The position numbers and the translations under genes were made by a program. Below are positions 1-58,831 of a stretch of 58,831 bases of DNA, one piece after another. The DNA comes from a bacterium (GTDB lineage: Bacteria > Patescibacteriota > Minisyncoccia > Phycocordibacterales > CAIZLB01), in assembly GCA_027490575.1 (NCBI GenBank), contig JAIXXV010000031.1, positions 1-58,831 of the forward strand, in the 5' to 3' direction. The first letter of the stretch is position 1. Each line of letters opens with the position of its first letter. A model generated the notes under the pieces. It was not told the origin of the DNA. It searched no databases and saw only the letters and a program-made list of their open reading frames with translations.

Positions 1-56
1 CTGCTACCTGCTACCTGCTACCTGCTACCTGCTACCTGCTACCTGCTACCTGCTAC
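1..56 (-). repeat. Perfect heptanucleotide tandem array. (CTGCTAC)x8 on the + strand equals (CAGGTAG)n in the sense of the adjacent minus-strand gene. Truncated by the window edge.
   Basis: Read directly: 8 identical 7-nt units from nt 1. The TAG stop of ORF 46..1239 (complement of nt 46-48) lies inside the array. Confidence 0.95.
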
Positions 57-1239
57 CTGTGATCTGCATCGTGTACCTTACTCCAAGTAACATAAGTGCT
101 CCAGCTATAAAGAATACGTATTTGATATCCAAAAAGACCATAGTAATACCAGCGATAAAAGGAGTTATAAGATAGGGTAGAGCTCTGGTCATTCTGAAGA
201 AACTTATGTATCCTGCATTTGATGGACTTATATGTTTGAAGAAGTAGCTTTCACTTGATACTTCTACGAAGCTTGCCCCTATACGACTTGTGAACAAAAG
301 TGCCGCCCATAAAACAATACTTGAGTCTTGTATAAATGGTATCAACATGAAGCTACCTGCCATGATTATAAATCCTACAATCAAGATAAATTTCTCATCG
401 TGGTACTTGTCCTCCATACGCCCGATTGGTATTTGAAACAGTAAAAAGGGAAGTAACATTACGCTCAATATGATTCCTACCTCTGACCATGCAAATCCCA
501 TGTGGTTTACAAGGTATAGCGGGATGTAGACAACTGTAAACCCGTAAAACATGTGCAATAAAAACTGATCTAGAAAGACATCAAATATATTTTTATTTTT
601 ATAGAAGTTTAAAGCTGCCTCTTTGATAGATCTATCCTCGTACTTTTGATCTACAAATGATCTAAAGTTTGAAAGGACAAGTATCATGAAGGGTATCATG
701 AAAAATGCTGCAATAATATACACTTTCCAGTATTCTGACCCTGAAAGTATTAGACCTGTGATGAAAGGTGTCAGTATCGGAGGTATATTGTGAAGTGTCA
801 GATATGTACCTCTAATGCTACCCATCTCTTTGTTTTCGGCATATCTCTCGATGAATATATCCAAGCAATAAAACAGTGTAGGTCCTACAGCCTGATGCAA
901 TATAAATAGTAATGCAGCGGCAATAGGACTTGTGATAAATGCTAGTCCCACAAGTGATACAAGCTCAATGAAAGCAAGTGTCATCGTTAGCTTATAGTTA
1001 CCGTACCTTCTTAGGATTTTAGGTGCATAGATATAAACGATTATGTTGATCAGTGCTCCAATCGTGAAAAGATAACCTACCGTCTTTTCACTAAAATACT
1101 CAGAAAGATATGTTGAGTTTATAAAATATACAAAGAAATAATGAAATGACAGTATCAGTAATGATACGAATATCAACATTAAGGCTTGTAGATTTTTTAG
1201 TTTTCCGAATATTCTATCCATTACTATATTGTAACCCAA
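46..1239 (-). CDS. Polytopic membrane transporter, MFS-like
   Basis: 397 aa with about 12 hydrophobic segments in two halves. The cytoplasmic loop R-rich motif (PKILRRYGNYK) resembles MFS motif A. No other family signature was recognised. Confidence 0.6.
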   Translation of the reverse strand: MGYNIVMDRIFGKLKNLQALMLIFVSLLILSFHYFFVYFINSTYLSEYFSEKTVGYLFTIGALINIIVYIYAPKILRRYGNYKLTMTLAFIELVSLVGLAFITSPIAAALLFILHQAVGPTLFYCLDIFIERYAENKEMGSIRGTYLTLHNIPPILTPFITGLILSGSEYWKVYIIAAFFMIPFMILVLSNFRSFVDQKYEDRSIKEAALNFYKNKNIFDVFLDQFLLHMFYGFTVVYIPLYLVNHMGFAWSEVGIILSVMLLPFLLFQIPIGRMEDKYHDEKFILIVGFIIMAGSFMLIPFIQDSSIVLWAALLFTSRIGASFVEVSSESYFFKHISPSNAGYISFFRMTRALPYLITPFIAGITMVFLDIKYVFFIAGALMLLGVRYTMQITGSR

Positions 1240-3369: not shown

Positions 3370-3404
3370 TTCTAATTGTTAATTTTAATTTCTAATTGTT
3401 AATT
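3370..3404. repeat. 20-bp-period direct repeat (ttctaattgttaatt x2) built from TAATTNN heptamers, directly upstream of the rnj start
   Basis: Identical 15-mers at 3370-3384 and 3390-3404. Confidence 0.85.
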
Positions 3405-3440
3405 CTTTTTTGTCTGTCTATCTGATTTTTTCTGTCGGAT

Positions 3441-3461
3441 AATTCTTAATTCTTAATTCTG
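3441..3461 (-). repeat. Heptamer array AATTCTT/AATTCTT/AATTCTG on the + strand. It contains the TAA stop of the solute-binding-protein gene.
   Basis: Three tandem 7-nt units read directly. The stop codon (complement of 3453-3455) lies inside unit 2. Confidence 0.85.
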
Positions 3462-5664: not shown

Positions 5665-6657
5665 ATGTCATTTATAGACGAGATATCAGTACATATCAGC
5701 GCCGGAAGGGGTGGAAACGGTGTTGTTAGGTGGTTGCATGAAAAGTTCAAAGAGTTCGGAGGTCCCGCTGGAGGAAACGGAGGACGTGGTGGTTTTGTGT
5801 ATGTTAGGGGTGTAAAAGATTCACTTTTGCTTGCCAAGTACAAGCATACTAAGGAGTTCAATGCTCAAAACGGTCAAGCTGGCGCAAGTCATAGTAAACA
5901 CGGTGCTAACGGAGAAGACCTATATATAGATCTACCAGTAGGAAGTGTTATCAAGAACCTGTCAACAGGTGATGTATACAGACTCGAAGAAGAGGGTCAA
6001 GAAATACTCATTCTCAAAGGAGGAAACGGAGGATATGGAAACGAGCACTTCAAAGGTCCTACGAATCAAACACCTGAAGAGTGGACTCCTGGAAAAGATG
6101 CTGAGGAAGCAGACTTCTATATAGAGGTTGAGCTTATCGCTGATATTGGACTTATAGGTTTGCCCAATGCTGGTAAGTCGTCACTGCTAAACTCATTAAC
6201 AAAAGCAAATGTAAAAGTCGGTGCATATCAGTTTACAACTCTAGAACCAAACCTTGGAAGTCTATATGGACTTATACTCGCTGACATCCCAGGACTTATC
6301 GAGGGTGCATCAGAAGGCAAAGGTCTCGGTCACAAGTTTTTGCGACATATTAGACGTACAAAAAAACTCATACACTGTATCTCACTTGAAAACTCAGTCG
6401 AGGAAGTTGTTGCTGTATACAAAACCATCAGAGCTGAGCTAGAAAGTTATGATCCAGAACTTGCTCAAAAAGAGGAAATGATTTTGCTTACAAAAACAGA
6501 TGTCGTGCATCCAGACGAACTACAAGAGAGACTTGTTGATATTAAAAATGCAATGCCAGAGTGGAAAGACAAAGAGGTACAGGCTATCTCTATATATGAC
6601 ATAGACGCATTAAAAAATCTCGCAGATTTTTTGACTAAGGACATGCACAAGGCTTAA
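5665..6657 (+). CDS. obg: GTPase Obg
   Basis: Gly-rich Obg fold (GRGGNGVV, GGPAGGNGGRGG, GGNGGYGN). G1 GLPNAGKSS, G3 DIPGLIEGA, G4 TKTD. Confidence 0.93.
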   Translation: MSFIDEISVHISAGRGGNGVVRWLHEKFKEFGGPAGGNGGRGGFVYVRGVKDSLLLAKYKHTKEFNAQNGQAGASHSKHGANGEDLYIDLPVGSVIKNLSTGDVYRLEEEGQEILILKGGNGGYGNEHFKGPTNQTPEEWTPGKDAEEADFYIEVELIADIGLIGLPNAGKSSLLNSLTKANVKVGAYQFTTLEPNLGSLYGLILADIPGLIEGASEGKGLGHKFLRHIRRTKKLIHCISLENSVEEVVAVYKTIRAELESYDPELAQKEEMILLTKTDVVHPDELQERLVDIKNAMPEWKDKEVQAISIYDIDALKNLADFLTKDMHKA

Positions 6658-10710: not shown

Positions 10711-11443
10711 AGACGAAATCAAGCACATTATACCTGCAATACTTCCACGCGATTATCAACAACTTGAAGAAGAAATGAGTCTTGTGGCAAGTATAGTAAA
10801 GTGGGTGCAGATAGATATTGTTGATGGAAATTTAGCACCAAACAGAACTTGGCCTTTTGTAGGTGACCCTGATGGCAATTTCAAAAAAATGGTTAGACAA
10901 GAAATGGGTATGCCAAACTGGGAAGATCTAGAGTTTGAAGTTGATATGATGGTTAAAGATCCTACTTTTATGATTGATGAGTGGATTGCCGTTGGAGCCT
11001 CTAGGATCATTGTTCATAAAAAAGGTCTTTCAAATGACAAAGTGGTTGAGTTGGCGAAAAATGTAAAAGACAAAGGTGTTGAGTTTATGCTGGCTTTTGA
11101 ATACGAAGAAGGACTTGAAGCTGCTCGTGAGATACTTGTAGAACTTATAAATCTAGACCTTGTAGACGGGGTACAATGCATGGGTATAGAACATATAGGT
11201 TTTCAACATCAGCCATTTAGTCCAAAAGTTTTGAATTTTATAAAGTCTATAAAAACAGAATTTCCTACACTTAGCGTCTCGGTGGACGGGGGAGTCAATC
11301 TCGATAATGCTCGAGCACTCATAGATATGGGAGCTGATAGACTTGTTTCTGGATCATTGATATTCACTTCAGATATGCCGAGAGACACTATAGAGCACCT
11401 AGAAGAGATATGCATCGGAATCCAGTTAGCAGATAACAGTTAG
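10703..11443 (+). CDS. rpe: Ribulose-phosphate 3-epimerase-like TIM-barrel enzyme
   Basis: VQIDIVDG, VSVDGGVN and GADRLVSGS blocks sit in the usual Rpe positions. Overlaps rpiB by 8 nt (ATGAATAA coupling). The TAG stop lies inside a heptamer array. Confidence 0.6.
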   Translation: MNKDEIKHIIPAILPRDYQQLEEEMSLVASIVKWVQIDIVDGNLAPNRTWPFVGDPDGNFKKMVRQEMGMPNWEDLEFEVDMMVKDPTFMIDEWIAVGASRIIVHKKGLSNDKVVELAKNVKDKGVEFMLAFEYEEGLEAAREILVELINLDLVDGVQCMGIEHIGFQHQPFSPKVLNFIKSIKTEFPTLSVSVDGGVNLDNARALIDMGADRLVSGSLIFTSDMPRDTIEHLEEICIGIQLADNS

Positions 11444-11506
11444 CAGGTAGCAGATAACAGTTAGCAGGTAGCAGATGACAGGTATCAGTTAACAGATAAC
11501 AGTTAG
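11423..11506 (+). repeat. Heptanucleotide array (CAGNTAR)x12
   Basis: Units, in order: cagttag, cagataa, cagttag, caggtag, cagataa, cagttag, caggtag, cagatga, caggtat, cagttaa, cagataa, cagttag. The rpe stop is the TAG of unit 3. Confidence 0.95.
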
Positions 11507-11514
11507 CCCGACAA

Positions 11515-11535
11515 AATTAAGAATTAAGAATTAGT
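11515..11535. repeat. Heptamer array AATTAAG/AATTAAG/AATTAGT
   Basis: Three tandem 7-nt units, 8 nt after the CAGNTAR array. Confidence 0.85.
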
Positions 11536-11598
11536 CCGGCAAAAAACAGGGGTAAAGGCAGAAAGCAAAAAATATTTAGCAATACAAATTTTAAAACA

Positions 11599-12835: not shown

Positions 12836-12870
12836 GAAAAACCACCCTTGTTCAGGATGGTTTTTCATTT
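12836..12870. terminator. Probable bidirectional terminator between the DUF192 gene (+) and rnpB (-)
   Basis: Imperfect stem accaccc/ggatggt, flanked by an A-run on one side and a T-run on the other. Confidence 0.45.
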
Positions 12871-12871
12871 T

Positions 12872-13342
12872 TGGTTGTGTCTATAAGCCGAATTCTGTAC
12901 TCACATAACGACACTTTGCCGAAGCATTGTACCTGATATAAGTGATAGTAATTTATCTAGGCCATATGTTGCCACATGACTCGAGCGACTCTCATTACAT
13001 GTGCCACGAGGGCAATATATAAAGCACGGTCTTGCACTCGGATAAGGATTTTGCCGTTTCACCTTGAGTTTGTTTATACAATATACTCAAGTTAATCTGT
13101 TGTACCAGATCCATATATCCTTGAGGATATGTGCGTCACTGCTCGCACCTCTTAGCTTGCGCTAGACGGGGGTTACCCGCTACCTGTTTCTCGTACTTTG
13201 CATCTATATAAATTCAAAGAAAGTTTAACCTAACTTTAGAATTTCTTCAGGAGAGGGAATACGAGAGAGTGTTCGGACTTTCCTCTACATCAAGACTGGA
13301 CCCGAAGGTTTTTCTTGATATAGTAACTATCCAACACAACGT
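12872..13342 (-). ncRNA. rnpB: RNase P RNA (bacterial), about 470 nt
   Basis: On the minus strand: P1 GUUGUGU/ACACAAC. P2 GAUAGU/ACUAUC. P3 AUCAAGA...UCUUGAU. Universal P4 5' strand GAGGAAAGUCCGAAC. GGUAACCCC...AAGAGGUGCGAGCAG. P4 3' strand ACAGAAUUCGGCUUAU. The 620-bp region has no ORF. Confidence 0.88.
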
Positions 13343-15454: not shown

Positions 15455-15458
15455 GATT

Positions 15459-15493
15459 TAATTCTTAATTACTAATTGTTAATTGCTAAGGTC
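15459..15493 (-). repeat. Heptamer array TAATTCT/TAATTAC/TAATTGT/TAATTGC/TAAGGTC between the mscL start and the dsbA-like stop
   Basis: Five tandem 7-nt units. The TAA stop of ORF 15479..16213 (complement of 15479-15481) lies inside the array. Confidence 0.85.
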
Positions 15494-20132: not shown

Positions 20133-20618
20133 ATGCCAAAAAAAAGAAAAACAGATTTAAAGAGTAAGGGTATAACATGGAGTAAGGCTTTGTATTCCGA
20201 TATATTTTCTTCTTGCAATATAAAATCAACAAAACCTCGTCTAGCTGTACTAGAAGTATTTAGTGAAGCTGGTCAGCCATTATCAGCTGAAGACGTATTT
20301 AAAATAATTAAGAAAAAGACTGGTAAAAATCCAGACATTGTTACTATATATAGAGCAATAGAGATATTCGAAAAAGGAGGTTTTTTACTTAAGGTTGCAT
20401 ACAAAGATAAAGTAAATAGATATGAGTTTACTGCTGACCCAGAACACCACCACTGCCACCACGCCATCTGCGAAGGGTGCGGAGTGACTGAGCATATAGA
20501 AGATGAGGAGATTGAGAAGGCTCTAGAAGTTCTCGCCAAGAAGTTTAAGAAAGTGAAGTTTGTAAAAGAACATAATCTAGAGTTTTTTGGTAAATGCACT
20601 TCGTGCAAAAACAGTTAA
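20133..20618 (+). CDS. Fur-family metalloregulator (Fur/Zur/PerR type)
   Basis: Winged-helix block (RLAVLEVF...IYRAIEIFEKGG). Metal sites HHHCHHAICEGCG and CTSC. Basic N-terminal extension. Confidence 0.8.
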   Translation: MPKKRKTDLKSKGITWSKALYSDIFSSCNIKSTKPRLAVLEVFSEAGQPLSAEDVFKIIKKKTGKNPDIVTIYRAIEIFEKGGFLLKVAYKDKVNRYEFTADPEHHHCHHAICEGCGVTEHIEDEEIEKALEVLAKKFKKVKFVKEHNLEFFGKCTSCKNS

Positions 20619-20646
20619 CACTTATCAAGTAGCAGTTAACAGTTAA
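20612..20646 (+). repeat. Heptamer array cagttaa/cacttat/caagtag/cagttaa/cagttaa
   Basis: Five tandem 7-nt units. The Fur-family gene's TAA stop is in unit 1. Confidence 0.85.
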
Positions 20647-23098: not shown

Positions 23099-25195
23099 CT
23101 ATATTCCTTTTGTAGTTTTTATATAATCCAAATACACCTCTGCCTCTATAACTGCAAGATAGGAACTTTCTTGATACTTACTTATTTGATTATTTTGGTA
23201 ACTAAATTTATTGATATCAATTTCACATACACTCGCTATTTCTGAAATGGTACTTCTAGTTTTTATTGATAACTGGTTGATAATACTATTTGCGAGCTTT
23301 GGTACATGTTCTATATACATGTTGTATAAAAGTCTTTCTGGTGCAACGCAGTCAATATTTTCAGTTTTAGTATTTTTAATACCTATGACTTTTTTAAGGA
23401 GATATTCTGAAATATATGTTTTATTGCCATTATTAATATCATCTAGACAATCCTTTGCATCATCAGATATTTGGCGTATGGACAGGTAATACTTATAGTA
23501 TTCAATGATCAAGGGTTTTAACTTCTTCACTAGCATTGCTTTTTGATAACGAGAGTATTTACTGTTTGAAAATATTGCTAGTTTCGAAGACATGACTGCT
23601 CCAATTGCATGGACTATGGATTTTTGGCTAAGTTCATATATTAGACCGTTACAACTTCTGTACAACTTTTTATGATTATAAAATATTGATAATTCATCAC
23701 TGTCCTCGTCATCTGGTTTGTACTCAAACAATTCGTTGTGCATCGAGTGGTAGACTTTAGACAATCCTAGTAAACATTTTGACATCGTAATCTTTGCATC
23801 AGATACAGTTTTAGACAGACTGATAAGGTTGCTAAGTTTTTCATCACCATCTTCTACGTCATCTAAAAAGGTATAACTTGTCCAGCCATAAAGCATGGCT
23901 TTAGAAACCTCAGTAACCTCTACCGGCAGTATAGTTATGCACTTTGAAAACGACTTATACCACTCAATAGATTCTGATACTATCCAGTGTTCTAGGTTCT
24001 TATCAATCTTTGAATGTTGCTTTATGTCCAACACCAATAACTCTGCATTGAATTGTTTGATGATTTCTGCAGAGTAAAAGTTAGACACTTGCCCACGGGG
24101 CAAAACTATATTACTTAATGATATCAAATTGGATAGCGATACTGACAGGTAGTATGACAGAGGGATCAATCTCGTGGTACGTGTTCCATGTTTTGAATCT
24201 AAATATAAAGGTTCAATAGACTTATATTTCCTCAAGTATGTCAAAATAACTATTTTTAGCGATGGGAATATTATATCCCTGAATTTTATGCTAGATTGCC
24301 GGTATAGATTATCAAGGATATTTGATTTTGATGATGTCTTTATACAATCTAGTTTGGCTTCACATAAGAATATCTTTTTAATAAATGTTGCCACTGTTCC
24401 ATCAAGTTTATCAATCGCAAGTAATTTCATATCAAATGAACCAGTGCATTTAATGATTTTACACATTATGTATGTATCAGAAATATAATATTTAGATAGT
24501 GGCACTTCACCTCGACTCAAGTAATTTTCAATTTTAGTTTGGAAATACTTATCCAAGTGGTCTGGCACAGAATTTATCGATTTTAAAACACTGTATATGT
24601 TTGAATGTACGACGGCGTCATTGTCGGTCCATCTTTTGTCTTTTGTGAAGCTATTCATTATCCATGTTTTGTAATATCCACCATGGTCGTAGCATTGTTT
24701 TAATGCTCCTATATATTCTCTTGTTGCAGATACTAATTTGTTGTACTTAAAATCATCTTTATTTTTCTTCCTAAAATTATATTTGTCTCTGATTATTTTA
24801 TTGAGCCATAAGCAGTGTATACCTACCGATGTATCGTCAAGATCATTTGGGTAAATAGGCGTGACCAAACTATGCCTCTGGTAATTTAATTGATATTTAA
24901 GGTCAAACTGGCTGTTGATGAAATCGGTCGACTCTCTGGTGATCTTCAAAATTTCTTCGTGGCCCTGCTTACTTATATTTGAGTTGATAAGTGCCAATTG
25001 CAAAGTTTCTGTTGTCAGCAGAGTGTTGAATATCGAAGTATTATCAAATGACACTCTGGGATTTAAACTTTTTCTATCCCCCTTATTATCATTTTCTGAA
25101 ATGTGTATTGATTTGAAAAAGCCATCCTGATCTTGGAGGCGTCTGATAAGGTTGATGTGCAGTTTTATTAGAATTTGTAAAAGTAGATTCTTCAA
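23099..25195 (-). CDS. Two-domain isoprenoid-enzyme-like protein. The N-terminal region resembles a class II terpene cyclase or prenyltransferase alpha/alpha-toroid. The C-terminal region resembles a class I trans-isoprenyl or squalene/phytoene synthase.
   Basis: aa 118-123 DLDDTS (DxDD[TS]). RRLQDQDGFF and YDHGGYYKTW are QW-like repeats. aa 445-449 FLDDVED and aa 578-582 QISDDAKD lie 133 residues apart, followed by DCLDDINNGNKTY. The gene is very AT-rich. Confidence 0.45.
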   Translation of the reverse strand: MKNLLLQILIKLHINLIRRLQDQDGFFKSIHISENDNKGDRKSLNPRVSFDNTSIFNTLLTTETLQLALINSNISKQGHEEILKITRESTDFINSQFDLKYQLNYQRHSLVTPIYPNDLDDTSVGIHCLWLNKIIRDKYNFRKKNKDDFKYNKLVSATREYIGALKQCYDHGGYYKTWIMNSFTKDKRWTDNDAVVHSNIYSVLKSINSVPDHLDKYFQTKIENYLSRGEVPLSKYYISDTYIMCKIIKCTGSFDMKLLAIDKLDGTVATFIKKIFLCEAKLDCIKTSSKSNILDNLYRQSSIKFRDIIFPSLKIVILTYLRKYKSIEPLYLDSKHGTRTTRLIPLSYYLSVSLSNLISLSNIVLPRGQVSNFYSAEIIKQFNAELLVLDIKQHSKIDKNLEHWIVSESIEWYKSFSKCITILPVEVTEVSKAMLYGWTSYTFLDDVEDGDEKLSNLISLSKTVSDAKITMSKCLLGLSKVYHSMHNELFEYKPDDEDSDELSIFYNHKKLYRSCNGLIYELSQKSIVHAIGAVMSSKLAIFSNSKYSRYQKAMLVKKLKPLIIEYYKYYLSIRQISDDAKDCLDDINNGNKTYISEYLLKKVIGIKNTKTENIDCVAPERLLYNMYIEHVPKLANSIINQLSIKTRSTISEIASVCEIDINKFSYQNNQISKYQESSYLAVIEAEVYLDYIKTTKGI

Positions 25196-26633
25196 TGTCT
25201 TTGTTTGTTTTATCGATACCTTCTTTGAGATTGGTATTTAATGTGTTTTTAGGTATTAACAATTCAAATGTACTTCCTGAACCGACTTTGGAAATGATTC
25301 TTATTGTCCCGTTGAAGTACTTCTCTAGATTGTGTTTTGTAGCAGAAAGACCTATGCCACAACCATTCAGTTTTTTGGTTGTAAAAAATGGTTCAAATAT
25401 TTTTTCTTGCAGATCAGTGTCCATGCCTACACCAAAATCTTTTATGGTTATCTTTATCTTATTGCTATCATTGTTTATCCAAATGAAGACTTTTCTTTCT
25501 CGTGAATCGCTTATATCTGAATACGAATCTATAGCATTTGATACTAGGTTATTGATTATGTGAGAGAAGATTACGTAGTTACCTGTAAAGTTGTATTTTC
25601 TGTCCTGATTAAATACGAGGTCAACTCCAATTTTTCTTGCTTTTGATTTTAGTATACTTATTACATCTGATACCTCTTTTGTGAGTGAAAACATTTCAGA
25701 CTTATCATCTATCCGCATCTGCTTTTTAGCTTTTTCGATAAGTAAGTGTATTTTTTGAGTTGACCGGATCAGGTTGTTTAGATTATTATTTAGTGAACTG
25801 GTTGTATCGTCACCTGATTTTTCATACCTGTTAGATATCTCCATGGCCATAGTGCTCAAAGGGGATGATAGATCGTGAAATAATCCGCTAGATAATCTAC
25901 CAAACTCTACAAGCCGGTACATGTGATTTATCTTTTCTAGTTGAGCCTCTTGAAGCTCCATCGTCTTTTTCTTAACAGTTTCGTCGAGATTATCTCTTTC
26001 TGTTTTGAGATCTTTCTCAGATTTTCTAGCCCTATCTAGTGACTTATATATTTCTTTGTTTGAAAGCCAACAGATTGCGGATATAGACAAGAATATGAAC
26101 CCGTACTCTATGGTGTTTATGAGAGTGAAATCATAGTCTTTCCAACTTTTAGCTGAGGCAAAGGGGTTAATGCCTTGGAAGTGAATACTTAAGAATGAGA
26201 GCGTGGTAATGAGTATGCTAATGACTACAGCAGACACAGGATTTATGAGTATGCTTACAGTAACAACTATAAGTGTCCACATGAGTATGGCTGATGGAAA
26301 ATCAAATCCCCAGACTAGCTGAGTAGTTAAAACTATCAACGATATGCTAGCAACAAATACCTTTATACAAATCTTGCTATAACCTTTCTTGGATAGAAGC
26401 AAGAGTAGGGAATAAAAGATAAATATTGAAACCATTAAGACGAGCGGTATTCCATCATACCCCTCGTCTTTGATTGCAAATGTGAATACTAGTATTACTA
26501 AATGTATCCCAATAAGTGATATAAGTGTCAGTAATGAAATGTTAAATATATATTCCTTCCGGTATAAATCTTCATCTTCTGTGTGAACAGGTTTTGATAG
26601 ATACTTTATGAGTCTCTTGAATATATTAGACAT
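25089..26633 (-). CDS. Sensor histidine kinase with a multi-pass membrane sensor domain. Orphan: no response regulator in the window.
   Basis: About 6 TM helices in the first 190 aa, then a coiled coil. H-box FHDLSSPLSTM. N-box NLVSNAIDS. G1 DFGVGM. F-box FEPFFTTK. G2 GCGIGLS. Ends TGA TAA TAA. The 3' 107 nt overlap the next gene. Confidence 0.85.
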   Translation of the reverse strand: MSNIFKRLIKYLSKPVHTEDEDLYRKEYIFNISLLTLISLIGIHLVILVFTFAIKDEGYDGIPLVLMVSIFIFYSLLLLLSKKGYSKICIKVFVASISLIVLTTQLVWGFDFPSAILMWTLIVVTVSILINPVSAVVISILITTLSFLSIHFQGINPFASAKSWKDYDFTLINTIEYGFIFLSISAICWLSNKEIYKSLDRARKSEKDLKTERDNLDETVKKKTMELQEAQLEKINHMYRLVEFGRLSSGLFHDLSSPLSTMAMEISNRYEKSGDDTTSSLNNNLNNLIRSTQKIHLLIEKAKKQMRIDDKSEMFSLTKEVSDVISILKSKARKIGVDLVFNQDRKYNFTGNYVIFSHIINNLVSNAIDSYSDISDSRERKVFIWINNDSNKIKITIKDFGVGMDTDLQEKIFEPFFTTKKLNGCGIGLSATKHNLEKYFNGTIRIISKVGSGSTFELLIPKNTLNTNLKEGIDKTNKDIEESTFTNSNKTAHQPYQTPPRSGWLFQINTHFRK

Positions 26634-30993: not shown

Positions 30994-33900
30994 ATGAGTG
31001 AGGGTTTATTTAACAATAGAAAATGCTTTTTAAACTTGATTAAAAAATCATTTTTAATACTTTTAATTGCTTTTACTTTTCTACCTCAAAATCCAGTAGG
31101 TGCACAAGAAGAATTCACAACTGGATACGAAAATGAAGTAGGATATTTTTCTAATATCGACAACACTTTATCTACTATTAAAAACATTTACTTAGATGCT
31201 TACGGTCAACTGTTAAGCGCTCTACTTAATGCAACAAATAGTGTTTTTAGTTTGGTAACTAATGCTCTGGGCGTAGAGGGTCTAAACTCAGTAGATTCAT
31301 CTAATGTGGCTTCAGTAAACAGTTTAGTAGCACAAGCAAATGTCATAAGAGTGCCAAGTCAGGCGAATACAAATACTGGTACAAGTACTGGTGCAAGATC
31401 GGGGCAGGGCACTGCAAGCACAAATACTGGTGCACCAACTACAAGAGTTCTAAGAAATACAGGCATAAGAAACAGTTCAAATAACAATGTAACTCAAGAA
31501 TATATTGAAAGTAGATTCCTCGATATTATAGGTATGATACCAAGTATAGTTAGAGGCTACTCATCATCTGTATCTAGTCAGGGATCTACAAATCAAAACT
31601 TTTTACCACCCACAGGGATATTTTATCCTCAGTTTGCTTCATACGGGTATACAAACCCATCTAGAGACAGTGCTTCTATCTCTAGTGTAAATACTATTGT
31701 AAGTGAGAGGGTGTCTAATGATATCTCAGCTTTAAATAACAGTCTGTTACCTAGAATAGAAGAGCTTGAGAACTCATCAAGTACTGGTGGTTCGTCGCAG
31801 TGGGATGATATAGATGGGGTCGGTATATCTTATATGGATGGGAATGTGGGGATTGGTACAACGACACCAGATGCAACATTGGTTATTTCTGATACAAACA
31901 CAGCCAGACCTTTAAAACTTTTGGGTATATATGGTACAAATGTAGAGTTTGTTGTATCAGATGAACCACCAAGTGTTTACGCGAATGTTGACGCGGGTGT
32001 AGGGTCACTAGGGTTTTTAAACTCAGATTCTTATCTTGGAGGTCTATATACAAAATATTCAAGTGTTGGTCGTTGGGGAAAGGTGTTACACAGAAGGGAT
32101 GATGATTCAATCCTATTTAATTTTGATAATTCAGATGGGAAGCAAATGCTGTTTGATCAAATCGGACTTAGAATGCGAAAAAATGTTTACGGTATAGACG
32201 GTATTGACTTAAACGTTTCCGATGAGGGTGATGGAAATCTCAATCTCTCAAGCACAGAGGATGGGCTGTCTACATTTACAATGTCTGATGACTTGTACGA
32301 TGAAAATGTCAATATTTCAGGTGATGGATCAGCTTATTTTGCAGGCAACGTTGGGATCGGGACGACGGATCCTCAAGCAAATATCGAAATTAAGAATGAA
32401 TTAAATGCTTCATTATGGCTATCTTATGGTACAGATAGATCAGGAAGAATTAGTTTCTATAACGGTGATGGAGATGAAAACGCTTACTTCTTATCTGATG
32501 ATGATCTTAATAATTTTCAAATAAACACGGATGGAAGACCTCTATTGCTTCAGCCTACAGGAGGCAACGTCGGTATCGGCACCAACAACCCAAACCACGC
32601 ACTTTCTTTCAGTACTGCAGGAGCAACTATTGGTATTGCAGATCAGTTAGCTTATGACGCACCAGGAGGAGCATTGACTATCACAGGGGGTGTTGGTACA
32701 GCCGGAGGTAATGCAGGAGGAGATTTGATATTGAAAGGAGGTAATTCATTTACAGGAGAGAGTCATGCAGCAGGAGATGTAAAGATTTATGGTGGAGTTA
32801 ACAACTTTGACTCTCCATTGTATGGTGGTGCTATACGTATGTATACAGCCGGTGCAGAGAGGTTTACTGTGTTAAATGATGGGAATGTGGGTATTGGCAC
32901 AAACAACCCCCTTGCAAAACTTGATATAGCCGGAATAAATGAGTATAACTACGTTCGTTTGCTTACACCATATGGTGACTTTACGAATGGGCTGTCTATT
33001 GCATTGAATGACAATGGAGAAGGTGATGGTTTCGGTTTAATAGATATGAATATGAATCCGGAAGAAGGGTTTAATATTACTAAAAATAATGGTCAGGGGG
33101 AATTTTCTCAGTTTGGCCTGGGATCAGAAATTAGTTTCACTACTCAAGATTCAAACACCGGACTTTCGGCATCTGCATATTTGTCCACAGGCGGATTTTC
33201 TGTTACAGGAACAACAAGTGTTACAACATTAAACATAACAAGTGGTATCACCTATGTAGGCTCAGATAAGTATATGACTATGCAAGGTGGTACAGTGTCT
33301 GATGCTGACAACCTAATAGGTAACAATTTCTTCGTGGGTATAGGTGCCGGCGAAGGTGTTATACCTTTCGATGATTCTATACTTTGCCTTGATCTGTGTG
33401 ATTTTGGTGGTACTGAAAATGTTATGATTGGTAAAAATGCTGGGAGTGGTGCTACAAATGTAATCAGATCAAACTTTTTCGGTACGGGTGCTGGACAAGG
33501 TGCAATCAGCGCGGGTAATTCAAACTTCTTTGGTAACAATGCTGGAGCGATTGCAACTAATGCAAGTTACTCAAACTTCTTTGGTAGTGGTGCTGGACAA
33601 AACGCAACCAATGCCGGCAGCTCAAACTTCTTTGGTGTTAGCGCGGGATCAGGGGCAACCAATGCCGGCAACTCAAACTTCTTTGGTGGTAGTGCTGGGC
33701 AAAACGCAACTAACGCAATCAGCTCCAACTTCTTCGGTCAGAATGCAGGACTTAGTGCAAGTGGTGCAAACAACTCAAACTTCTTAGGTGCAAGTGCGGG
33801 AAACAGTGCAACCAATGCCAGCAACTCAAACTTCTTTGGTGTTAGTGCGGGATCAGGGGCAACCAATGCCAATAGCTCAACTTTCTTCGGTCTGAATGCA

Positions 33901-35277
33901 GGACTTAGTGCAAGTGGTGCAAGTAACTCAAATTTCTTCGGTCTGAATGCAGGACTTAGTGCAAGTGTTGCAAGTAACTCAAACTTCTTTGGTAACAATG
34001 CAGGGTCTGGTGCTATCAGTGCATCTGGATCAAACTTCTTCGGAATCAACGCAGGAGCTGGTGCACACACAGCAGGCAGTTCAAACTTCATTGGTGGTGG
34101 TGCTGGGCAGAACGCAACCAACGCAAGTAACTCAAACTTCTTTGGTGGTAGTGCTGGGCAAAACGCAACTAACGCAATCAGCTCCAACTTCTTCGGTCAG
34201 AATGCAGGACTTAGTGCAAGTGGTGCAAACAACTCAAACTTCTTTGGTAACAATGCTGGAGCGATTGCAACTAATGCAAGTTACTCAAACTTCTTTGGTG
34301 TTAGTGCTGGGCAAAACGCAACTAATGCAGCTAATTCCATATTCATGGGTATTAACGCTGGTCTTAATGACACCGTAAACAACACCTCAGCAAACCGTTC
34401 ATCCATCCTTATTGGTAACTACACCTCAACTGGAGGATTCTCAAATAGCATTGCTATAGGTCAGGGTGTTAGAAACTCAGCTGTAGACCAAGCTGTCATA
34501 GGTAGAGTATTGTTTCTATCGGGCATAAGTTCATCAACTTCAGCTACTTCTACGCCTATGGCAAACGGTAGGCTAGGTATTGGCACATCAACCCCAACCC
34601 AAGCTCTCTCTGTCGTTGGTACAGTCTTCGCTTCAAACCTCCTCGGTGGTGCAACCACTCTTTCAACAGATGCCAACGGTAACATCATACGTTCACCATC
34701 AGATCAATCTCTCAAGGAAAACATTACTACTATAGAAAACGCATTAGACAAGATATCACAACTACGTGGTGTATCTTACGAGTGGCTCGACAAAGCACGA
34801 TTCGGTTCATCTACTGAAATTGGCGTGATTGCCCAAGAAGTAGAGCAAGTAGTACCTGAAGTTGTATCATCAGGTGGTGAATACAAATCTGTAAAGATAG
34901 CAAACCTTGTTGGACTCATCATAGAAGCTGTTAAGGAGTTGAAGGAGAGGGTTGATACTATGTTCGCTTGGTTTGGTGGAAATGGAAAACGTCTAGATGT
35001 GCAAGGTCTAGTGTGTGCAGGTGACACTTGTGTTACCGAGGCTCAGATGGAACAAATACTTAAAAACTACTTGAATGCTACAGGGCAGCAATATAGTGTG
35101 CCAAATCAAATTGTGGATACTCAAACTAATACCCCAACAGAAGAGTCAGGTACTCCAAGTGCAGGTAGTAATGATGCCAATGAACAACCATCTGAGTCTG
35201 CTCCTCCTGTTACGGCACCTGTAGAACCCGTCTCAAGTGCACCAGAAACACCAGTTGAAACATCCTCAGAGCTATAG
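30994..35277 (+). CDS. Giant secreted tail-fibre-like repeat protein with a C-terminal intramolecular-chaperone (peptidase S74-type) domain
   Basis: Signal peptide. Five GNVGIGT(T/N)xP motifs. 17 and a partial copies of a 17-aa NFFGxxAGxxAxxAxxS repeat. The block SDQSLKENITTIENALDKISQLRGVSYEWLDK...GVIAQEVEQVVPEVV...LVGLIIEAVKEL is typical of endosialidase/tail-fibre chaperone domains. Confidence 0.8.
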   Translation: MSEGLFNNRKCFLNLIKKSFLILLIAFTFLPQNPVGAQEEFTTGYENEVGYFSNIDNTLSTIKNIYLDAYGQLLSALLNATNSVFSLVTNALGVEGLNSVDSSNVASVNSLVAQANVIRVPSQANTNTGTSTGARSGQGTASTNTGAPTTRVLRNTGIRNSSNNNVTQEYIESRFLDIIGMIPSIVRGYSSSVSSQGSTNQNFLPPTGIFYPQFASYGYTNPSRDSASISSVNTIVSERVSNDISALNNSLLPRIEELENSSSTGGSSQWDDIDGVGISYMDGNVGIGTTTPDATLVISDTNTARPLKLLGIYGTNVEFVVSDEPPSVYANVDAGVGSLGFLNSDSYLGGLYTKYSSVGRWGKVLHRRDDDSILFNFDNSDGKQMLFDQIGLRMRKNVYGIDGIDLNVSDEGDGNLNLSSTEDGLSTFTMSDDLYDENVNISGDGSAYFAGNVGIGTTDPQANIEIKNELNASLWLSYGTDRSGRISFYNGDGDENAYFLSDDDLNNFQINTDGRPLLLQPTGGNVGIGTNNPNHALSFSTAGATIGIADQLAYDAPGGALTITGGVGTAGGNAGGDLILKGGNSFTGESHAAGDVKIYGGVNNFDSPLYGGAIRMYTAGAERFTVLNDGNVGIGTNNPLAKLDIAGINEYNYVRLLTPYGDFTNGLSIALNDNGEGDGFGLIDMNMNPEEGFNITKNNGQGEFSQFGLGSEISFTTQDSNTGLSASAYLSTGGFSVTGTTSVTTLNITSGITYVGSDKYMTMQGGTVSDADNLIGNNFFVGIGAGEGVIPFDDSILCLDLCDFGGTENVMIGKNAGSGATNVIRSNFFGTGAGQGAISAGNSNFFGNNAGAIATNASYSNFFGSGAGQNATNAGSSNFFGVSAGSGATNAGNSNFFGGSAGQNATNAISSNFFGQNAGLSASGANNSNFLGASAGNSATNASNSNFFGVSAGSGATNANSSTFFGLNAGLSASGASNSNFFGLNAGLSASVASNSNFFGNNAGSGAISASGSNFFGINAGAGAHTAGSSNFIGGGAGQNATNASNSNFFGGSAGQNATNAISSNFFGQNAGLSASGANNSNFFGNNAGAIATNASYSNFFGVSAGQNATNAANSIFMGINAGLNDTVNNTSANRSSILIGNYTSTGGFSNSIAIGQGVRNSAVDQAVIGRVLFLSGISSSTSATSTPMANGRLGIGTSTPTQALSVVGTVFASNLLGGATTLSTDANGNIIRSPSDQSLKENITTIENALDKISQLRGVSYEWLDKARFGSSTEIGVIAQEVEQVVPEVVSSGGEYKSVKIANLVGLIIEAVKELKERVDTMFAWFGGNGKRLDVQGLVCAGDTCVTEAQMEQILKNYLNATGQQYSVPNQIVDTQTNTPTEESGTPSAGSNDANEQPSESAPPVTAPVEPVSSAPETPVETSSEL
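33472..34373 (+). repeat. 51-bp tandem repeat array (about 17.7 units) inside the 1427-aa gene, with long perfect internal duplications
   Basis: Units each encode NFFGxxAGxxAxxAxxS. A segment of about 115 bp at 33671-33785 recurs at 34130-34244 (offset 459 = 9 units). A segment of about 54 bp at 33532 recurs at 34247. Confidence 0.9.
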
Positions 35278-35300
35278 TCTTAGAGTATTAGAACCTCGGG

Positions 35301-35335
35301 TAAAGTCTTAAAGGTAAAGTCTTAAAGATTAAATC
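35301..35335 (-). repeat. Heptamer array TAAAGTC/TTAAAGG/TAAAGTC/TTAAAGA/TTAAATC (14-nt super-period) between convergent genes
   Basis: Read directly. The TAG stop of the FAD-oxidase gene (complement of 35335-35337) abuts the array. Confidence 0.8.
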
Positions 35336-49312: not shown

Positions 49313-49367
49313 ATATTTTTTGTTAATGTTTATTTTAATGTTTTCTTTTTTTTACTTGTCGGCCCAT

Positions 49368-49402
49368 CTGCTACCTATTACCTGATACCTGTTAACTGTT
49401 TT
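49368..49402 (-). repeat. Heptamer array. On the + strand: ctgctac/ctattac/ctgatac/ctgttaa/ctgtttt. This is the CAGNTAN family in the sense of the GT2 gene.
   Basis: Five tandem 7-nt units beginning at the TAA stop of ORF 49401..50696. Confidence 0.85.
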
Positions 49403-58341: not shown

Positions 58342-58722
58342 TCAGCAAACTACTTTTTTTGCATCGCTGATACTCATACGCATCAAGGATTTGATAAACT
58401 TTTTTGTGTCAGGAGGAAGGGGTAAACCTTGCTCGTCACGAGGTTCACTACCTCTGTACTCAACTTCGAGTATTGTTTTGCCGTTGCACATGATCTTTGC
58501 ACCAATTTTACTGACGGTATGCTGACCCGGTCTAAACATGAATGCGAAATCGAAACCATCACACTTCTTTAGAAGAAGTAGATTTTTTGCCAGACCTTCT
58601 TCATCAATCCTTGTGACATCTGTGCAATGTCCAATCACGAATATAGTACCTCCATGGTGGAAGCTACATTGAATTGTTGCTAATCCGCTTGTAGACCCAT
58701 TGATTATACTGGTAAGTGACAT
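58342..58722 (-). CDS. Hypothetical protein (GC-richer cassette), 126 aa
   Basis: Canonical GGAGGA 6 nt upstream of the ATG, a TGA stop and its own GC-rich terminator. No family recognised. Confidence 0.45.
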   Translation of the reverse strand: MSLTSIINGSTSGLATIQCSFHHGGTIFVIGHCTDVTRIDEEGLAKNLLLLKKCDGFDFAFMFRPGQHTVSKIGAKIMCNGKTILEVEYRGSEPRDEQGLPLPPDTKKFIKSLMRMSISDAKKVVC

Positions 58723-58831
58723 AACAATTCCTCCAATTTTCTATGTTGATTTTCAATGTGAATCTCACAAGGCCTAGAAGGCCAGGTAAGACAGAACTGT
58801 GTTCCTGAGCAATACTATACTAGTATTTTTA

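Follow-up and report, generated by a model that had tools for sequence, protein, structure and literature searches.

Tandem arrays of 7-nt units have reportedly been known in bacteria since 1990, from the work of Mazel and colleagues, and one of their units, STRR3, is said to be CAACAGT, a rotation of CAGTCAA that is one mismatch from CAGTTAA. The cyanobacterial STRR sequences of Calothrix PCC 7601 (Mazel et al. 1990, cited in PMC4692102) are tandem 7-nt units forming several related unit families per genome, which are dispersed, intergenic and lineage-specific. Long simple sequence repeats of prokaryotes (LSSR, 5–11 nt) are likewise intergenic and phylogenetically scattered (PMC4679880, PMC4692102). 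In the LSSR survey of Mrazek, Guo and Shah 2007, as summarised in PMC4679880, heptanucleotides were the most abundant long-SSR class, and polymerase slippage was proposed as their source; the survey predates CPR genomes, and its summary describes neither docking on stop codons nor composite arrays.

Two further heptamer families come closer to gene ends. TAACTGA repeats (MacGregor 2015, PMC4679880) form intergenic arrays in marine Beggiatoaceae, Cyanobacteria and Bacteroidetes. In forward orientation they overlap ORF ends by at most 18 nt owing to their stops, and the strand with the stops runs in the same direction as the flanking genes. The arrays interrupt contigs, and indels between strains are multiples of 7 nt. 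In the Beggiatoaceae genome most sets, of 2–6 copies, are found shortly before a start codon, and they were suggested to act in the initiation of translation. GGGAATC / GGGGAYT repeats (Xanthomonas, Nostoc; Rehm et al. 2015, PMC4692102) are a genome-specific family of variable copy number, located within 0–50 bp of stop codons or overlapping them, enriched between co-directional genes, and depleted and rare between divergent ones. Their units are stop-free, G-quadruplex-capable and preferentially present as 4 units.

Here we describe heptamer arrays in a 58,831-nt stretch of DNA (the window) from a Patescibacteria (CPR) bacterium, whose genome is roughly 0.8 Mb, judging from the 771-kb contig of a sister species. 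The arrays are members of the STRR / LSSR heptanucleotide microsatellite class: they comprise at least 3–4 head-to-tail 7-nt copies, related units recur at many dispersed, mainly intergenic loci, copy number and sequence are polymorphic between strains in unit steps, and there is no long-range positional conservation. The original prediction knew of no described element of this kind, but heptanucleotide arrays, stop proximity and all-frame stops have all been published (PMC4679880; PMC4692102). New in this case are its host phylum and unit family, together with a conserved and unexplained GC-rich cap, NCCGRCA, to which the arrays are anchored.

Arrays, unit families and the GC-rich cap

The four predicted CAGNTAR arrays, here called A1 to A4, were recovered by TRF and a pattern search (1–59, 11423–11506, 20612–20646 and 49364–49398), with 4.7–12.1 period-7 copies per array; 100 dinucleotide shuffles gave 0 pattern matches. 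Four NAATTAR arrays, and a fifth CAGNTAR array just past the window edge, seen in the NCBI MAG copy, had been missed. There are therefore eight heptamer arrays in 58.8 kb and one just outside. All units of this lineage have the form NANNTAR and fall into two sub-families, CAGNTAR and RAATTAR. The features are as follows.

1–59, minus strand: A1, (CAGGTAG) x8.4, perfect, truncated by the window edge
46–1239, minus strand: MFS gene, with its TAG stop (46–48) in unit 2 of A1
3371–3406, minus strand: NAATTAR array, ending about 5 nt ahead of the RNase J start codon (3367)
3433–3439, minus strand: cap TCCGACA followed by GAAAAAATCAG, at the (GAATTAA) x3 array
3440–3460, minus strand: (GAATTAA) x3, with the SBP_bac_5 stop TAA (3453–3455) in unit 1
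11423–11506, plus strand: A2, 12 CAGNTAR units with a 21-nt super-repeat, CAGGTAG CAGATAA CAGTTAG
11507–11513, plus strand: cap CCCGACA, between A2 and the next array
11514–11534, plus strand: RAATTAR array, AAATTAA GAATTAA GAATTAG, after A2 and the cap
11535–11547, plus strand: second cap TCCGGCA, then A6, after the RAATTAR array
15458–15485, minus strand: RAATTAR-type array, CAATTAA CAATTAG TAATTAA GAATTAA, holding the stop of a DsbA-like gene (15479–15481)
20612–20646, plus strand: A3, five degenerate units, CAGTTAA CACTTAT CAAGTAG CAGTTAA CAGTTAA
49357–49363, minus strand: cap GCCGACA, then an A-rich tract, at A4
49364–49398, minus strand: A4, five units, CAGTTAA CAGGTAT CAGGTAA TAGGTAG CAGATGG

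All arrays are intergenic, or overlap a gene by its last codons only. The genes upstream of A1 to A4 belong by Pfam to MFS, Ribul_P_3_epim, FUR and GT2, and each array is in sense orientation to its gene, so that this part of the original prediction holds for all four. The accompanying claim, that the stop codon lies within one of the first units, is true of the MFS gene, rpe and fur. At rpe, unit 1 of A2 supplies the final two native codons (CAG TTA) and the stop TAG (11441–11443) lies in unit 3, adding the tail ADNS to the protein; at fur, unit 1 of A3 consists of the last 4 CDS nt and the stop TAA (20616–20618). At GT2 the stop TAA (49401–49403) is directly beside the array, 2 nt upstream of the first clean unit of A4, in a degenerate, out-of-register unit, GAGGTAA. 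Three of the four RAATTAR-type arrays in the window are also docked on a stop codon, and the array at 15458–15485 occupies the entire 24-nt spacer up to the MscL start.

The arrays are not assembly artefacts, because they are found inside contigs of independent assemblies (NCBI MAG, Logan, JGI); an origin as artefacts at contig ends, raised as a caveat with the original prediction, thus does not apply, although short-read contigs do break within A1 (Logan contigs end in the array). A possible sixth array at 13173–13186 proved to be a chance two-unit match within RNase P RNA. Outside the arrays no excess of lag-7 matches was found, and the intergenic DNA is not generally made of decayed heptamer arrays. 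Nor does every unit-like singleton seed an array, as 8 intergenic and 64 genic singletons are unexpanded.

Several arrays abut a GC-rich cap. CCGRCA occurs within a few nt of the array end at about four of the eight arrays (P about 4e-10), and the three CCGRCA sites followed by an A-run in the whole window each directly follow a heptamer array. CAGRYGG often stands before the cap and an A-run after it, and the units nearest to the cap tend to be the GC-richest. Junctions of the same kind were found in L344, L125 (CAP gene), L348 (dsbA) and L349 (GT2), and the composite of stop codon, CAGNTAR array, GC-rich cap and RAATTAR array recurs at three unrelated gene ends. The cap is absent at A1, at the fur array of the sister species and at the tRNA-proximal array of L349. 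It is not a universal feature of CAGNTAR arrays, as it follows 2 of 179 arrays in other genomes, which is chance level (among the matches listed), and an apparent cap in L342, a metagenome match of 66% GC, is coding sequence of a convergent ORF.

Set against the known families, the arrays resemble TAACTGA repeats in the co-orientation of the stop-bearing strand with flanking genes, in contig breaks and in 7-nt strain indels, and TAACTGA, reverse-complemented and rotated, reads CAGTTAT, which differs from CAGNTAR at one position. Membership of that family was rejected: units of the CAGNTAT type (CAGGTAT in A2 and A4, CACTTAT in A3) occur as isolated singles only, and the dominant units are CAGGTAG, CAGATAA, CAGTTAG and CAGTTAA. 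Placement upstream of starts, as for most Beggiatoaceae sets, was likewise rejected, since only the array at 3371–3406 among the nine of the window species abuts a start codon, and seven of the nine dock on stops. In contrast to GGGAATC, the arrays are A/T-rich, cannot form G-quadruplexes and carry TAR in every unit. They share with STRR the related, dispersed, lineage-specific unit families, and in the matches listed Cyanobacteria rank with the groups that most often carry exact (CAGNTAR)4; they differ from STRR in the Patescibacteria host, the CAGNTAR and RAATTAR units, near-universal stop docking and the anchoring cap.

Turnover between strains and relatives

Copy-number comparison between strains, suggested as a check on the original prediction, showed differences at three arrays. 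The 12 units of A2 in the window stand against 8 of different composition in the metagenome contig JACCDR010681355, whose flanks are about 97% identical; the first three units are common to both strains and the remainder differs. For A1, the window gives at least 8.4 units and the NCBI MAG 7; as these are short-read assemblies, the count may be collapsed. In the MAG the array is followed by a convergent gene with its own sense-oriented array. The AAGAATT array orthologous to 11514–11534 has 4 perfect copies in L122 and L124 and 3 in L123, which are sister-species contigs from different samples. A4 is identical in the NCBI MAG, and protein-identity look-ups for further strain variants returned identical neighbourhoods only.

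The arrays are gained and lost between relatives with 93–96% identical orthologous proteins. The sister species, whose rpe is 93% identical, lacks A2; its dsbA locus has a stop codon followed by CAGNTAR x5, CCCGGCA and RAATTAR x3, where the window has no CAGNTAR. Its fur gene carries an orthologous 5-unit array with units different from those of A3. A relative with a 96% identical GT2 (L349) lacks A4 but keeps the cap, with a RAATTAR array instead, so that the cap is retained although the arrays on both sides differ. In the same relative, the gene ahead of tRNA-Thr is followed by CAGNTAR x6, an array that the window lacks at this place. No such heptamer array was found in about 90 kb of relatives with 57–63% identical rpe, in which TRF reported two chance two-copy period-7 matches of unrelated sequence only. 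The rpe junction is a synteny breakpoint, with transketolase next in the more distant relatives and Flavodoxin_2 here. Arrays do not always mark such breakpoints, as there is none at the SBP/RNase J junction.

Docking on stop codons and candidate signals

The docking of arrays on stop codons is not due to chance. For six arrays of this species, the joint probability of docking under uniform placement per spacer is about 1.6e-6, and docking was seen for five of six arrays counted in 20 kb of the sister species. Stretches of (CAGNTAR)4 occur at least 120 times in more than 15 phyla. Among the matches listed, 30 of 67 arrays between co-directional genes lie at most 5 nt from the upstream stop, against 8.2 expected, an excess of 3.7-fold over uniform placement (simulation p < 5e-5), and only 5 of those 67 have the downstream start within 5 nt. 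Counted by gene ends (again among the matches listed), 50 of 121 adjacent 3' ends have the array within 5 nt, compared with 5 of 95 adjacent 5' ends. Where stops are confined to one strand of the array, the array is in sense orientation to the gene on the upstream side in 23 cases and antisense in 6 (p = 0.002; among the matches listed). The bias in position and orientation on which the original prediction had staked itself is thus real, both in this lineage and across phyla. Docking across phyla, at roughly 40%, is weaker than in this lineage, and the near-universal docking seen here may point to selection at the stop codon.

The junctions show no frame specificity, with -7, -14 and -21 all present among their offsets. 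GC skew is positive throughout the window, which places it on one replichore, and the arrays nonetheless lie on both strands, each matching its gene; their orientation therefore follows transcription and not replication, and a replication-strand bias was discarded.

CAGNTAR is not a specially favoured sequence, at least in viral contigs, where permuted control heptamers are about equally frequent (18, 27, 31 and 90 stretches, against 38 for CAGNTAR). All four viral control sets are more often near 3' ends than near 5' ends; the viral CAGNTAR set (3/17 vs 2/41) is too small for a clear 3'-end preference. The stop-free control CAGNATR lies mostly within ORFs in viral contigs (22/37), with docking of 4/13 vs 1/13.

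With one TAR per 7 nt, all three frames are closed within 21 nt, and the frame arithmetic of the original prediction (7 and 3 being coprime) is correct. Its corollary, that the complement is open in all frames, applies to A1 only; in A2, A3 and A4, two of the three complementary frames are closed because CAGTTAR is stop-bearing on both strands. The arrays do close every frame on the sense strand, and they are tolerated on that condition; this is probably not a function they were built for.

Intrinsic terminators and REP/BIME elements are also sited immediately 3' of genes, and REPs resemble the arrays in being dispersed, lineage-specific and common between convergent or co-directional genes. 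The arrays differ in having neither a GC-rich hairpin with a U-tract nor a palindromic unit of about 35 bp; they are direct repeats whose folding is weak or no better than that of shuffled sequences. The sense RNA of A2 (-15 kcal/mol over 84 nt, z = -3.9) folds weakly better than its shuffles, and the other five folded segments, including A2 antisense and the A1, A3 and A4 regions, were like shuffles (z -0.15 to -1.6). REP/BIME, imperfect palindromes of about 20–40 bp that often form inverted pairs, was rejected, as the arrays are direct repeats only, without a palindromic unit, and the gathering scan of the whole window against Rfam matched tRNA-Thr alone, the arrays matching no family. A consensus scan and a strict scan found no terminator (GC-rich hairpin and U-tract) at the array junctions, in agreement with the original prediction. 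The contrast drawn there with other gene ends is uninformative, since the strict scan finds canonical terminators at 6 of the 47 gene ends in the window (imperfect hairpins by eye may raise this to about 10–12); as most gene ends lack one, the missing terminators carry no weight. Because canonical terminators are rare at all gene ends anyway, the arrays were not accepted as terminator substitutes, and they are probably not terminators.

Rho utilisation (rut) sites were rejected as well: they need about 70–80 nt of unstructured RNA that is rich in C and poor in G, whereas each unit of the sense strand has a single C, against 3 G in CAGGUAG, and the only C-rich strand is A1 antisense. Contingency repeats for phase variation do not fit, as the arrays are at 3' ends and not in the 5' coding part or promoter. 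Copy changes past the first stop-bearing unit leave the protein unaltered.

Origin of the arrays

We consider the arrays to be lineage-specific, slippage-driven heptanucleotide microsatellites that have been filtered by selection to the 3' ends of genes and to the stop-bearing strand, a reading to which we give a probability of about 0.68. Arrays would expand, contract and homogenise through strand slippage or unequal exchange, in keeping with higher-order repeats of 21 and 14 nt and with an 8-unit run free of mismatches. Spread between loci would probably involve copying from existing arrays into unit-like sites, and such copying would explain the recurrence of the composite at unrelated gene ends. 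A 7-nt indel would frameshift any host ORF, and upstream of genes it would disturb promoters or ribosome-binding sites; arrays would thus persist only from the last few codons into the 3' flank, because the indels are harmful elsewhere. Overlap with a gene end would be harmless only with a sense-strand stop in every frame, so that each slippage step alters at most about 6 C-terminal residues. Deletion of the functionless spacer between stop and array would then draw the array onto the stop codon. Their non-conservation suggests that the arrays may lack a function.

Pure neutral slippage leaves several observations unexplained, namely why all arrays of the lineage have the NANNTAR form, why a cap is conserved and is kept at GT2 while the arrays differ, and why one and the same composite is found at three gene ends unrelated to each other. 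A further point against it is that two strains share the first three units of A2 while the rest diverges.

The original prediction suggested a fail-safe stop or insulator, or a binding array substituting for terminators. Variation of the arrays, their gain and loss, and the similar docking of permuted and stop-free heptamers argue against this. As a selected translational insulator, the arrays would uncouple neighbouring cistrons in packed, terminator-poor operons. Each of the five CAGNTAR arrays of this species runs in sense and has the stop within or next to it, the one-strand-stop arrays show the same sense bias across phyla (23 vs 6, among the matches listed), several arrays occupy co-directional spacers of 64–155 nt without terminators, across which the flanking genes are probably co-transcribed, and one array fills a whole 24-nt intercistronic spacer. 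Yet 3 units (21 nt) would suffice for this purpose, and the arrays have from 5 to at least 12 units and vary between strains. They come and go at different genes between 93–96% relatives, with none at about 60% identity, most window genes do without them, and stop-free heptamers dock likewise (PMC4692102; CAGNATR, 4/13 vs 1/13). We therefore regard insulation as unlikely. Slightly less likely is a factor-binding 3'-end module, in which units and cap (NCCGRCA and A-run) would be read by a lineage-specific protein that terminates, processes or stabilises mRNA in place of intrinsic terminators. One unit family at many loci, a conserved cap at the array edge that is kept at GT2 while the arrays on either side change, junctions without a canonical terminator, and array RNA that is largely unstructured, compatible with a single-strand binding platform, are consistent with it. 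The sequence itself is poorly suited to recognition: two of the seven unit positions vary freely, copy number is unconstrained, and the sense strand, rich in G and poor in C, has a composition contrary to that of Rho loading sites. A1, the fur array of the sister species and the tRNA-proximal array of L349 all lack the cap, which in other genomes follows 2 of 179 CAGNTAR arrays (among the matches listed), and a candidate binding protein was not identified.

The reciprocal presence and absence of the CAGNTAR and cap block, at rpe in the window and at dsbA in the sister species, suggests another possibility, that a small mobile or copy-pasted composite was inserted after the stop codon, in front of a RAATTAR array that was already there. 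It would have moved by template switching, ectopic gene conversion or a transposition-like process, and the arrays would mark recombination junctions. The same composite at the CAP gene, the synteny breakpoint at the rpe junction and the tendency of units nearest the cap to be GC-richest agree with this, and a role of heptamer arrays in rearrangement was likewise suspected by MacGregor 2015 (PMC4679880). However, there is no transposase, terminal inverted repeat or target-site duplication, the 5' boundaries differ at every locus, the SBP/RNase J junction bears arrays without a change in synteny, and intergenic CAGNTAR singletons are mostly unexpanded. This scenario, which we consider improbable as a separate explanation, overlaps with slippage and selection, as the latter already includes copying between arrays. 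Equally doubtful is a more specific proposal, in which the arrays are the variable arms of a 3'-end module peculiar to the lineage, built on a GC-rich anchor just after the stop. Units would accrue on both sides of the anchor, CAGNTAR towards the gene and RAATTAR away from it; the anchor itself would bind a protein, or be a site of replication or repair stalling or nicking that generates heptamers in a polar manner; and the whole would act as a factor-dependent signal for transcript ends, processing or translational insulation in a terminator-poor genome.

Slippage filtered by selection thus remains our preferred reading, and it bears on the class as a whole. The class now includes arrays in an ultra-small Patescibacteria genome, in which little non-functional DNA would be expected. 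Its docking is quantified across phyla, at about 3.7-fold over uniform placement, with a sense bias where one strand carries the stops. Both would follow from survivorship, since a gene end can bear a 7-nt indel only with every frame closed. For annotation, the arrays account for contig breaks and for small differences in C-terminal tails between strains. The sister genomes, with their reciprocal presence and absence of arrays and their conserved cap, provide a tractable natural experiment on the birth of the arrays, their polarity and any effect on transcripts.

Heptamer arrays and stop codons in the window

The window has a G+C content of 38.5%, and the host is assigned to the CPR bacteria because the names Pacebacteria, Taylorbacteria, Paceibacterota or Patescibacteria are attached to homologs of its rpe product (ribulose-phosphate 3-epimerase). 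The four CAGNTAR arrays that had been predicted from the sequence (A1 to A4) were recovered by TRF and by an IUPAC pattern search, and no CAGNTAR array match was found in shuffled sequence, used as the control. Four more period-7 arrays, belonging to the sister unit family NAATTAR and absent from the original prediction, were also present.

Period-7 arrays in the window
1-59, minus strand: A1, 8.4 perfect CAGGTAG units, cut by the window edge
3371-3406: NAATTAR array, ending just ahead of the RNase J start
3440-3460: NAATTAR array, containing the stop of an SBP_bac_5 gene
11423-11506: A2, 12 CAGNTAR units with a 21-nt super-period
11514-11534: NAATTAR array, 3' of A2
15458-15485: NAATTAR array, containing the stop of a DsbA-like gene and occupying the entire 24-nt spacer up to mscL
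20612-20646: A3, 5 degenerate units
49364-49398, minus strand: A4, 5 units

All four CAGNTAR arrays are sense to the gene upstream (MFS, rpe, Fur-family and GT2 by Pfam, for A1 to A4), as had been claimed. The stop codon was said to lie inside an early unit in every case; this holds for MFS, rpe and fur (TAR of units 2, 3 and 1, respectively), but the GT2 stop lies 2 nt ahead of the first clean A4 unit. The start of A2 is exactly the two native last rpe codons (CAG TTA), and the array adds four residues (ADNS). A contig from an NCBI MAG of the same organism extends beyond the left window edge. It carries A1 with 7 units and, beyond it, a convergent CAP-domain gene with its own sense-oriented CAGNTAR array, the TAG of whose first unit is the stop codon. 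NANNTAR fits all units of the lineage.

For six arrays of this species lying on the stop, the joint probability is about 1.6e-6, assuming uniform placement within each spacer. Docking, that is, the location of an array on or beside the upstream stop codon, is thus real and statistically solid, and the positional rule generalizes. GC skew is positive over the entire window, which places it on one replichore; since arrays occur there on either strand, always that of their gene, their orientation tracks transcription and not replication.

The arithmetic by which 7-nt TAR units close all three frames is correct. The complement, described as open in all frames, is so for CAGGTAG only; CAGTTAR also has TAA on the complement, which closes two frames on the complementary strand of A2, A3 and A4. 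Array junctions do lack hairpin terminators, but a strict scan detected canonical terminators at only 6/47 gene ends (perhaps about 10-12 with a few imperfect hairpins noted by eye). Because terminators are rare at gene ends generally, their absence at array junctions carries no information. RNA folding of six segments showed only the A2 sense strand departing from shuffles, and weakly.

Several other features of the window were recorded. Stop usage at all 47 gene ends was TAA 26, TAG 18 and TGA 3, with TAG unusually common and TGA rare; stops in heptamer units are TAR only, except in an occasional variant (for example CAGATGA). A bacterial class A RNase P RNA lies at 12868-13342 (minus strand), in a 630-nt gene-free gap between a DUF192 gene and murJ, beside a terminator-like hairpin (12836-12866). 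It matches the full model (positions 1-367, E = 1.8e-21), with 71 bits against an Rfam gathering score of 100 over about 475 nt, and is therefore divergent or insertion-bearing. A 1427-aa protein (30994-35277, plus strand) carries a Peptidase_S74 (endosialidase chaperone) domain close to the C-terminus and about 16 tandem 51-nt (17-aa) copies at 33469-34329, with higher orders of 102 and 153 nt; similar giant S74 proteins adjoin gapdh in relatives (L129, L130). A perfect 14-nt direct repeat, GGTAAAGTCTTAAA (x2.1, 35299-35327), lies between the S74 protein and FAD-oxidase genes, which converge across a 57-nt spacer. Two long minus-strand ORFs (23099-25195 and 25089-26633) share about 107 nt; a histidine-kinase-like ATPase is encoded by the upstream ORF, and the downstream one, with a TTG start, has no Pfam match. 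The overlap probably reflects a mis-assigned downstream start or a frameshift. Four independent assemblies (L338-L341) all stop within about 110-140 nt of the right window edge (58700-58831), where no tandem repeat is visible; another repeat or a coverage break probably lies just beyond.

Turnover in relatives and the GC-rich cap

Comparison with relatives showed that the arrays differ between corresponding gene ends.

Arrays at corresponding gene ends (cap, NCCGRCA)
rpe, window: CAGNTAR x12 + cap + RAATTAR x3 + cap
rpe, strain variant JACCDR010681355 (flanks about 97% identical): 8 units, sequence partly different
rpe, sister species (rpe 93% identical; 771-kb JGI contig, three Logan contigs): gene end ...CAA TTA TAG, then AAGAATT array only
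dsbA, window: NAATTAR x4 only; sister: stop + CAGNTAR x5 + CCCGGCA + RAATTAR x3
fur, window: CAGNTAR x5; sister: orthologous 5-unit array, units differ
GT2, window: CAGNTAR x5 + cap; relative with 96% identical GT2: stop + GCCGACA + RAATTAR x3, no CAGNTAR
gene before tRNA-Thr, window: no array; relative with 96% identical GT2: CAGNTAR x6

The strain variant retains the first three A2 units and the terminal CCGACA, and the sister's AAGAATT array has 3 or 4 perfect copies. Relatives whose rpe is 57-63% identical showed no such heptamer arrays in about 90 kb of sequence; the only period-7 hits of TRF there were two chance two-copy matches, unrelated in sequence. Hypermutable microsatellites behave in this way; conserved regulatory elements do not.

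Two of these loci have further peculiarities. The rpe junction bearing A2 (11443/11599) is a synteny breakpoint relative to the more distant relatives L128, L129 and L130 and to locus L346: rpe is followed by transketolase in more distant relatives and by Flavodoxin_2 and DUF192 in the window species and its sister, and in L346 the latter pair lies downstream of LemA and Peptidase_M48. The Fur-family protein (20133-20618) is 63% identical overall to its sister counterpart (P0123, L348 10001-10495). Identity is complete over the last ~55 residues, the array-encoded end KNS among them, whereas the N-terminal half is far more diverged. The 3' half of the gene is 92% identical in DNA, indicating purifying selection or old exchange rather than recent transfer.

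The cap is a GC-rich 7-mer at the 3' edge of arrays, usually followed by an A-run.

Cap sites
Window: 3433-3439, 11507-11513, 11535-11547, 49357-49363
Sister species (L348): about 5934-5940
Relative with 96% identical GT2 (L349): 1446-1452

CCGRCA followed, after up to 4 nt, by at least 4 A occurs at 3 sites in the entire window, all three immediately following a heptamer array in the sense direction, with a fourth near-match after A2. By chance, a cap at four or more of the eight arrays has a probability of about 4e-10. A composite of stop, CAGNTAR array, cap (often preceded by CAGRYGG) and RAATTAR array is shared by rpe (in both the window and the strain variant), the CAP gene and the sister's dsbA. 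Between relatives, the GT2 locus keeps its cap, with CAGNTAR on the gene side in one and RAATTAR on the far side in the other. Units adjoining the cap tend to be the most GC-rich (CAGATGG, CAGGCGG). The cap is absent at A1, at the sister's fur array, at the tRNA-proximal array and after CAGNTAR arrays of other genomes. We interpreted its recurrence, and that of the composite, as evidence either for copying of arrays, along with their flanks, from locus to locus, or for a cap that anchors or initiates the addition of units.

Heptamer arrays in other genomes

Searching one genome per species for exact (CAGNTAR)4 gave at least 120 stretches, and genes at these loci were taken from a simple longest-ORF model. 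Hosts among the matches listed include Cyanobacteria, Bacteroidota, Acidobacteriota, Chloroflexota, Planctomycetota, Gemmatimonadota, Firmicutes, Proteobacteria, Spirochaetota and others. Among these listed matches, co-directional gene pairs held 43 sense and 24 antisense arrays, convergent pairs 21-23 and divergent pairs 9-10; an array edge lay within 5 nt of the adjacent gene 3' end in 50/121 cases and of the adjacent 5' end in 5/95. For the 67 co-directional cases listed, 30 arrays lay within 5 nt of a stop against 8.2 expected from uniform placement (simulation p < 5e-5), and 5 within 5 nt of a start. Where, in the same matches, units had stops on one strand only, they were sense to the upstream-side gene in 23 cases versus 6 (p = 0.002). 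Array-ORF overlaps of 7, 14 and 21 nt were all found among the matches listed, and hence there is no preferred reading frame. The positional and orientation bias on which the original prediction hinged is therefore present, as docking excess and sense bias, in the window species and across phyla. Many other heptamer arrays occur at the listed loci, 27/275 without a stop on either strand. One unrelated genome (JGI Ga0209023_10000076, 42% GC; L343 1100-1210) has (GAATTAA)n and an inverted TTAATTC-type copy flanking a 20-nt core, forming a long hairpin between two co-directional genes; this could be a different route from heptamer arrays to a terminator-like structure.

In viral contigs, (CAGNTAR)4 gave 38 stretches, and the permuted controls gave 18 (GACNTAR), 27 (AGCNTAR), 31 (CAGNATR, with no stop on either strand) and 90 (GACRATN). 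Chance expectation is far below 1 for each pattern, so arrays of arbitrary heptamers arise readily. A 3' gene end was nearby more often than a 5' end in all four viral control sets; the viral CAGNTAR set (3/17 near 3' versus 2/41 near 5' ends) is too small for a clear difference. The stop-free CAGNATR arrays lie mostly within ORFs (22/37). Control-set placement near 3' ends, together with stop-free arrays within ORFs, is the prediction of a selection filter.

Origin of the arrays

We consider a three-part mechanism the most economical explanation (probability about 0.68). The arrays would be heptanucleotide microsatellites driven by slippage, copying would occur between arrays, and their survival would be restricted to gene 3' ends and to the orientation in which the stop-bearing strand is sense; all-frame stopping would then be a requirement for arrays to be tolerated, not a function for which they were designed. 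The original prediction had suggested a fail-safe stop or insulator, or else a factor-binding array in place of terminators. A dedicated insulator seems improbable, a substitute for terminators is similarly doubtful, and we give a binding array equally little credence, as the fast gain, loss and variability of the arrays disfavor all three.

The original prediction also knew of no described element of this kind. TAACTGA arrays are known from Beggiatoaceae, Cyanobacteria and Bacteroidetes (MacGregor 2015, PMC4679880), and the reverse-complement rotation of this repeat is CAGTTAT. Forward repeats translate as LITDN-stop and can overlap ORF ends by no more than 18 nt; strains differ in 7-nt steps, and contigs end in arrays (PMC4679880). 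As summarized there, Mrazek 2007 reported heptanucleotides as the commonest long-SSR class and proposed slippage. In Xanthomonas and Nostoc, GGGAATC/GGGGAYT heptamers are over-represented between co-directional ORFs and under-represented between divergent ORFs, with a strong bias to within 50 bp of a stop codon or overlapping it (Rehm 2015, PMC4692102). Heptamer-derived satellite families are listed in Subirana and Messeguer 2019, and a Nostoc preprint describes heptamers near promoters with only modest, context-dependent effects. The element class, its position and the stop arithmetic had therefore been described before. New here are the host phylum and the unit family of a known class, together with the cap.
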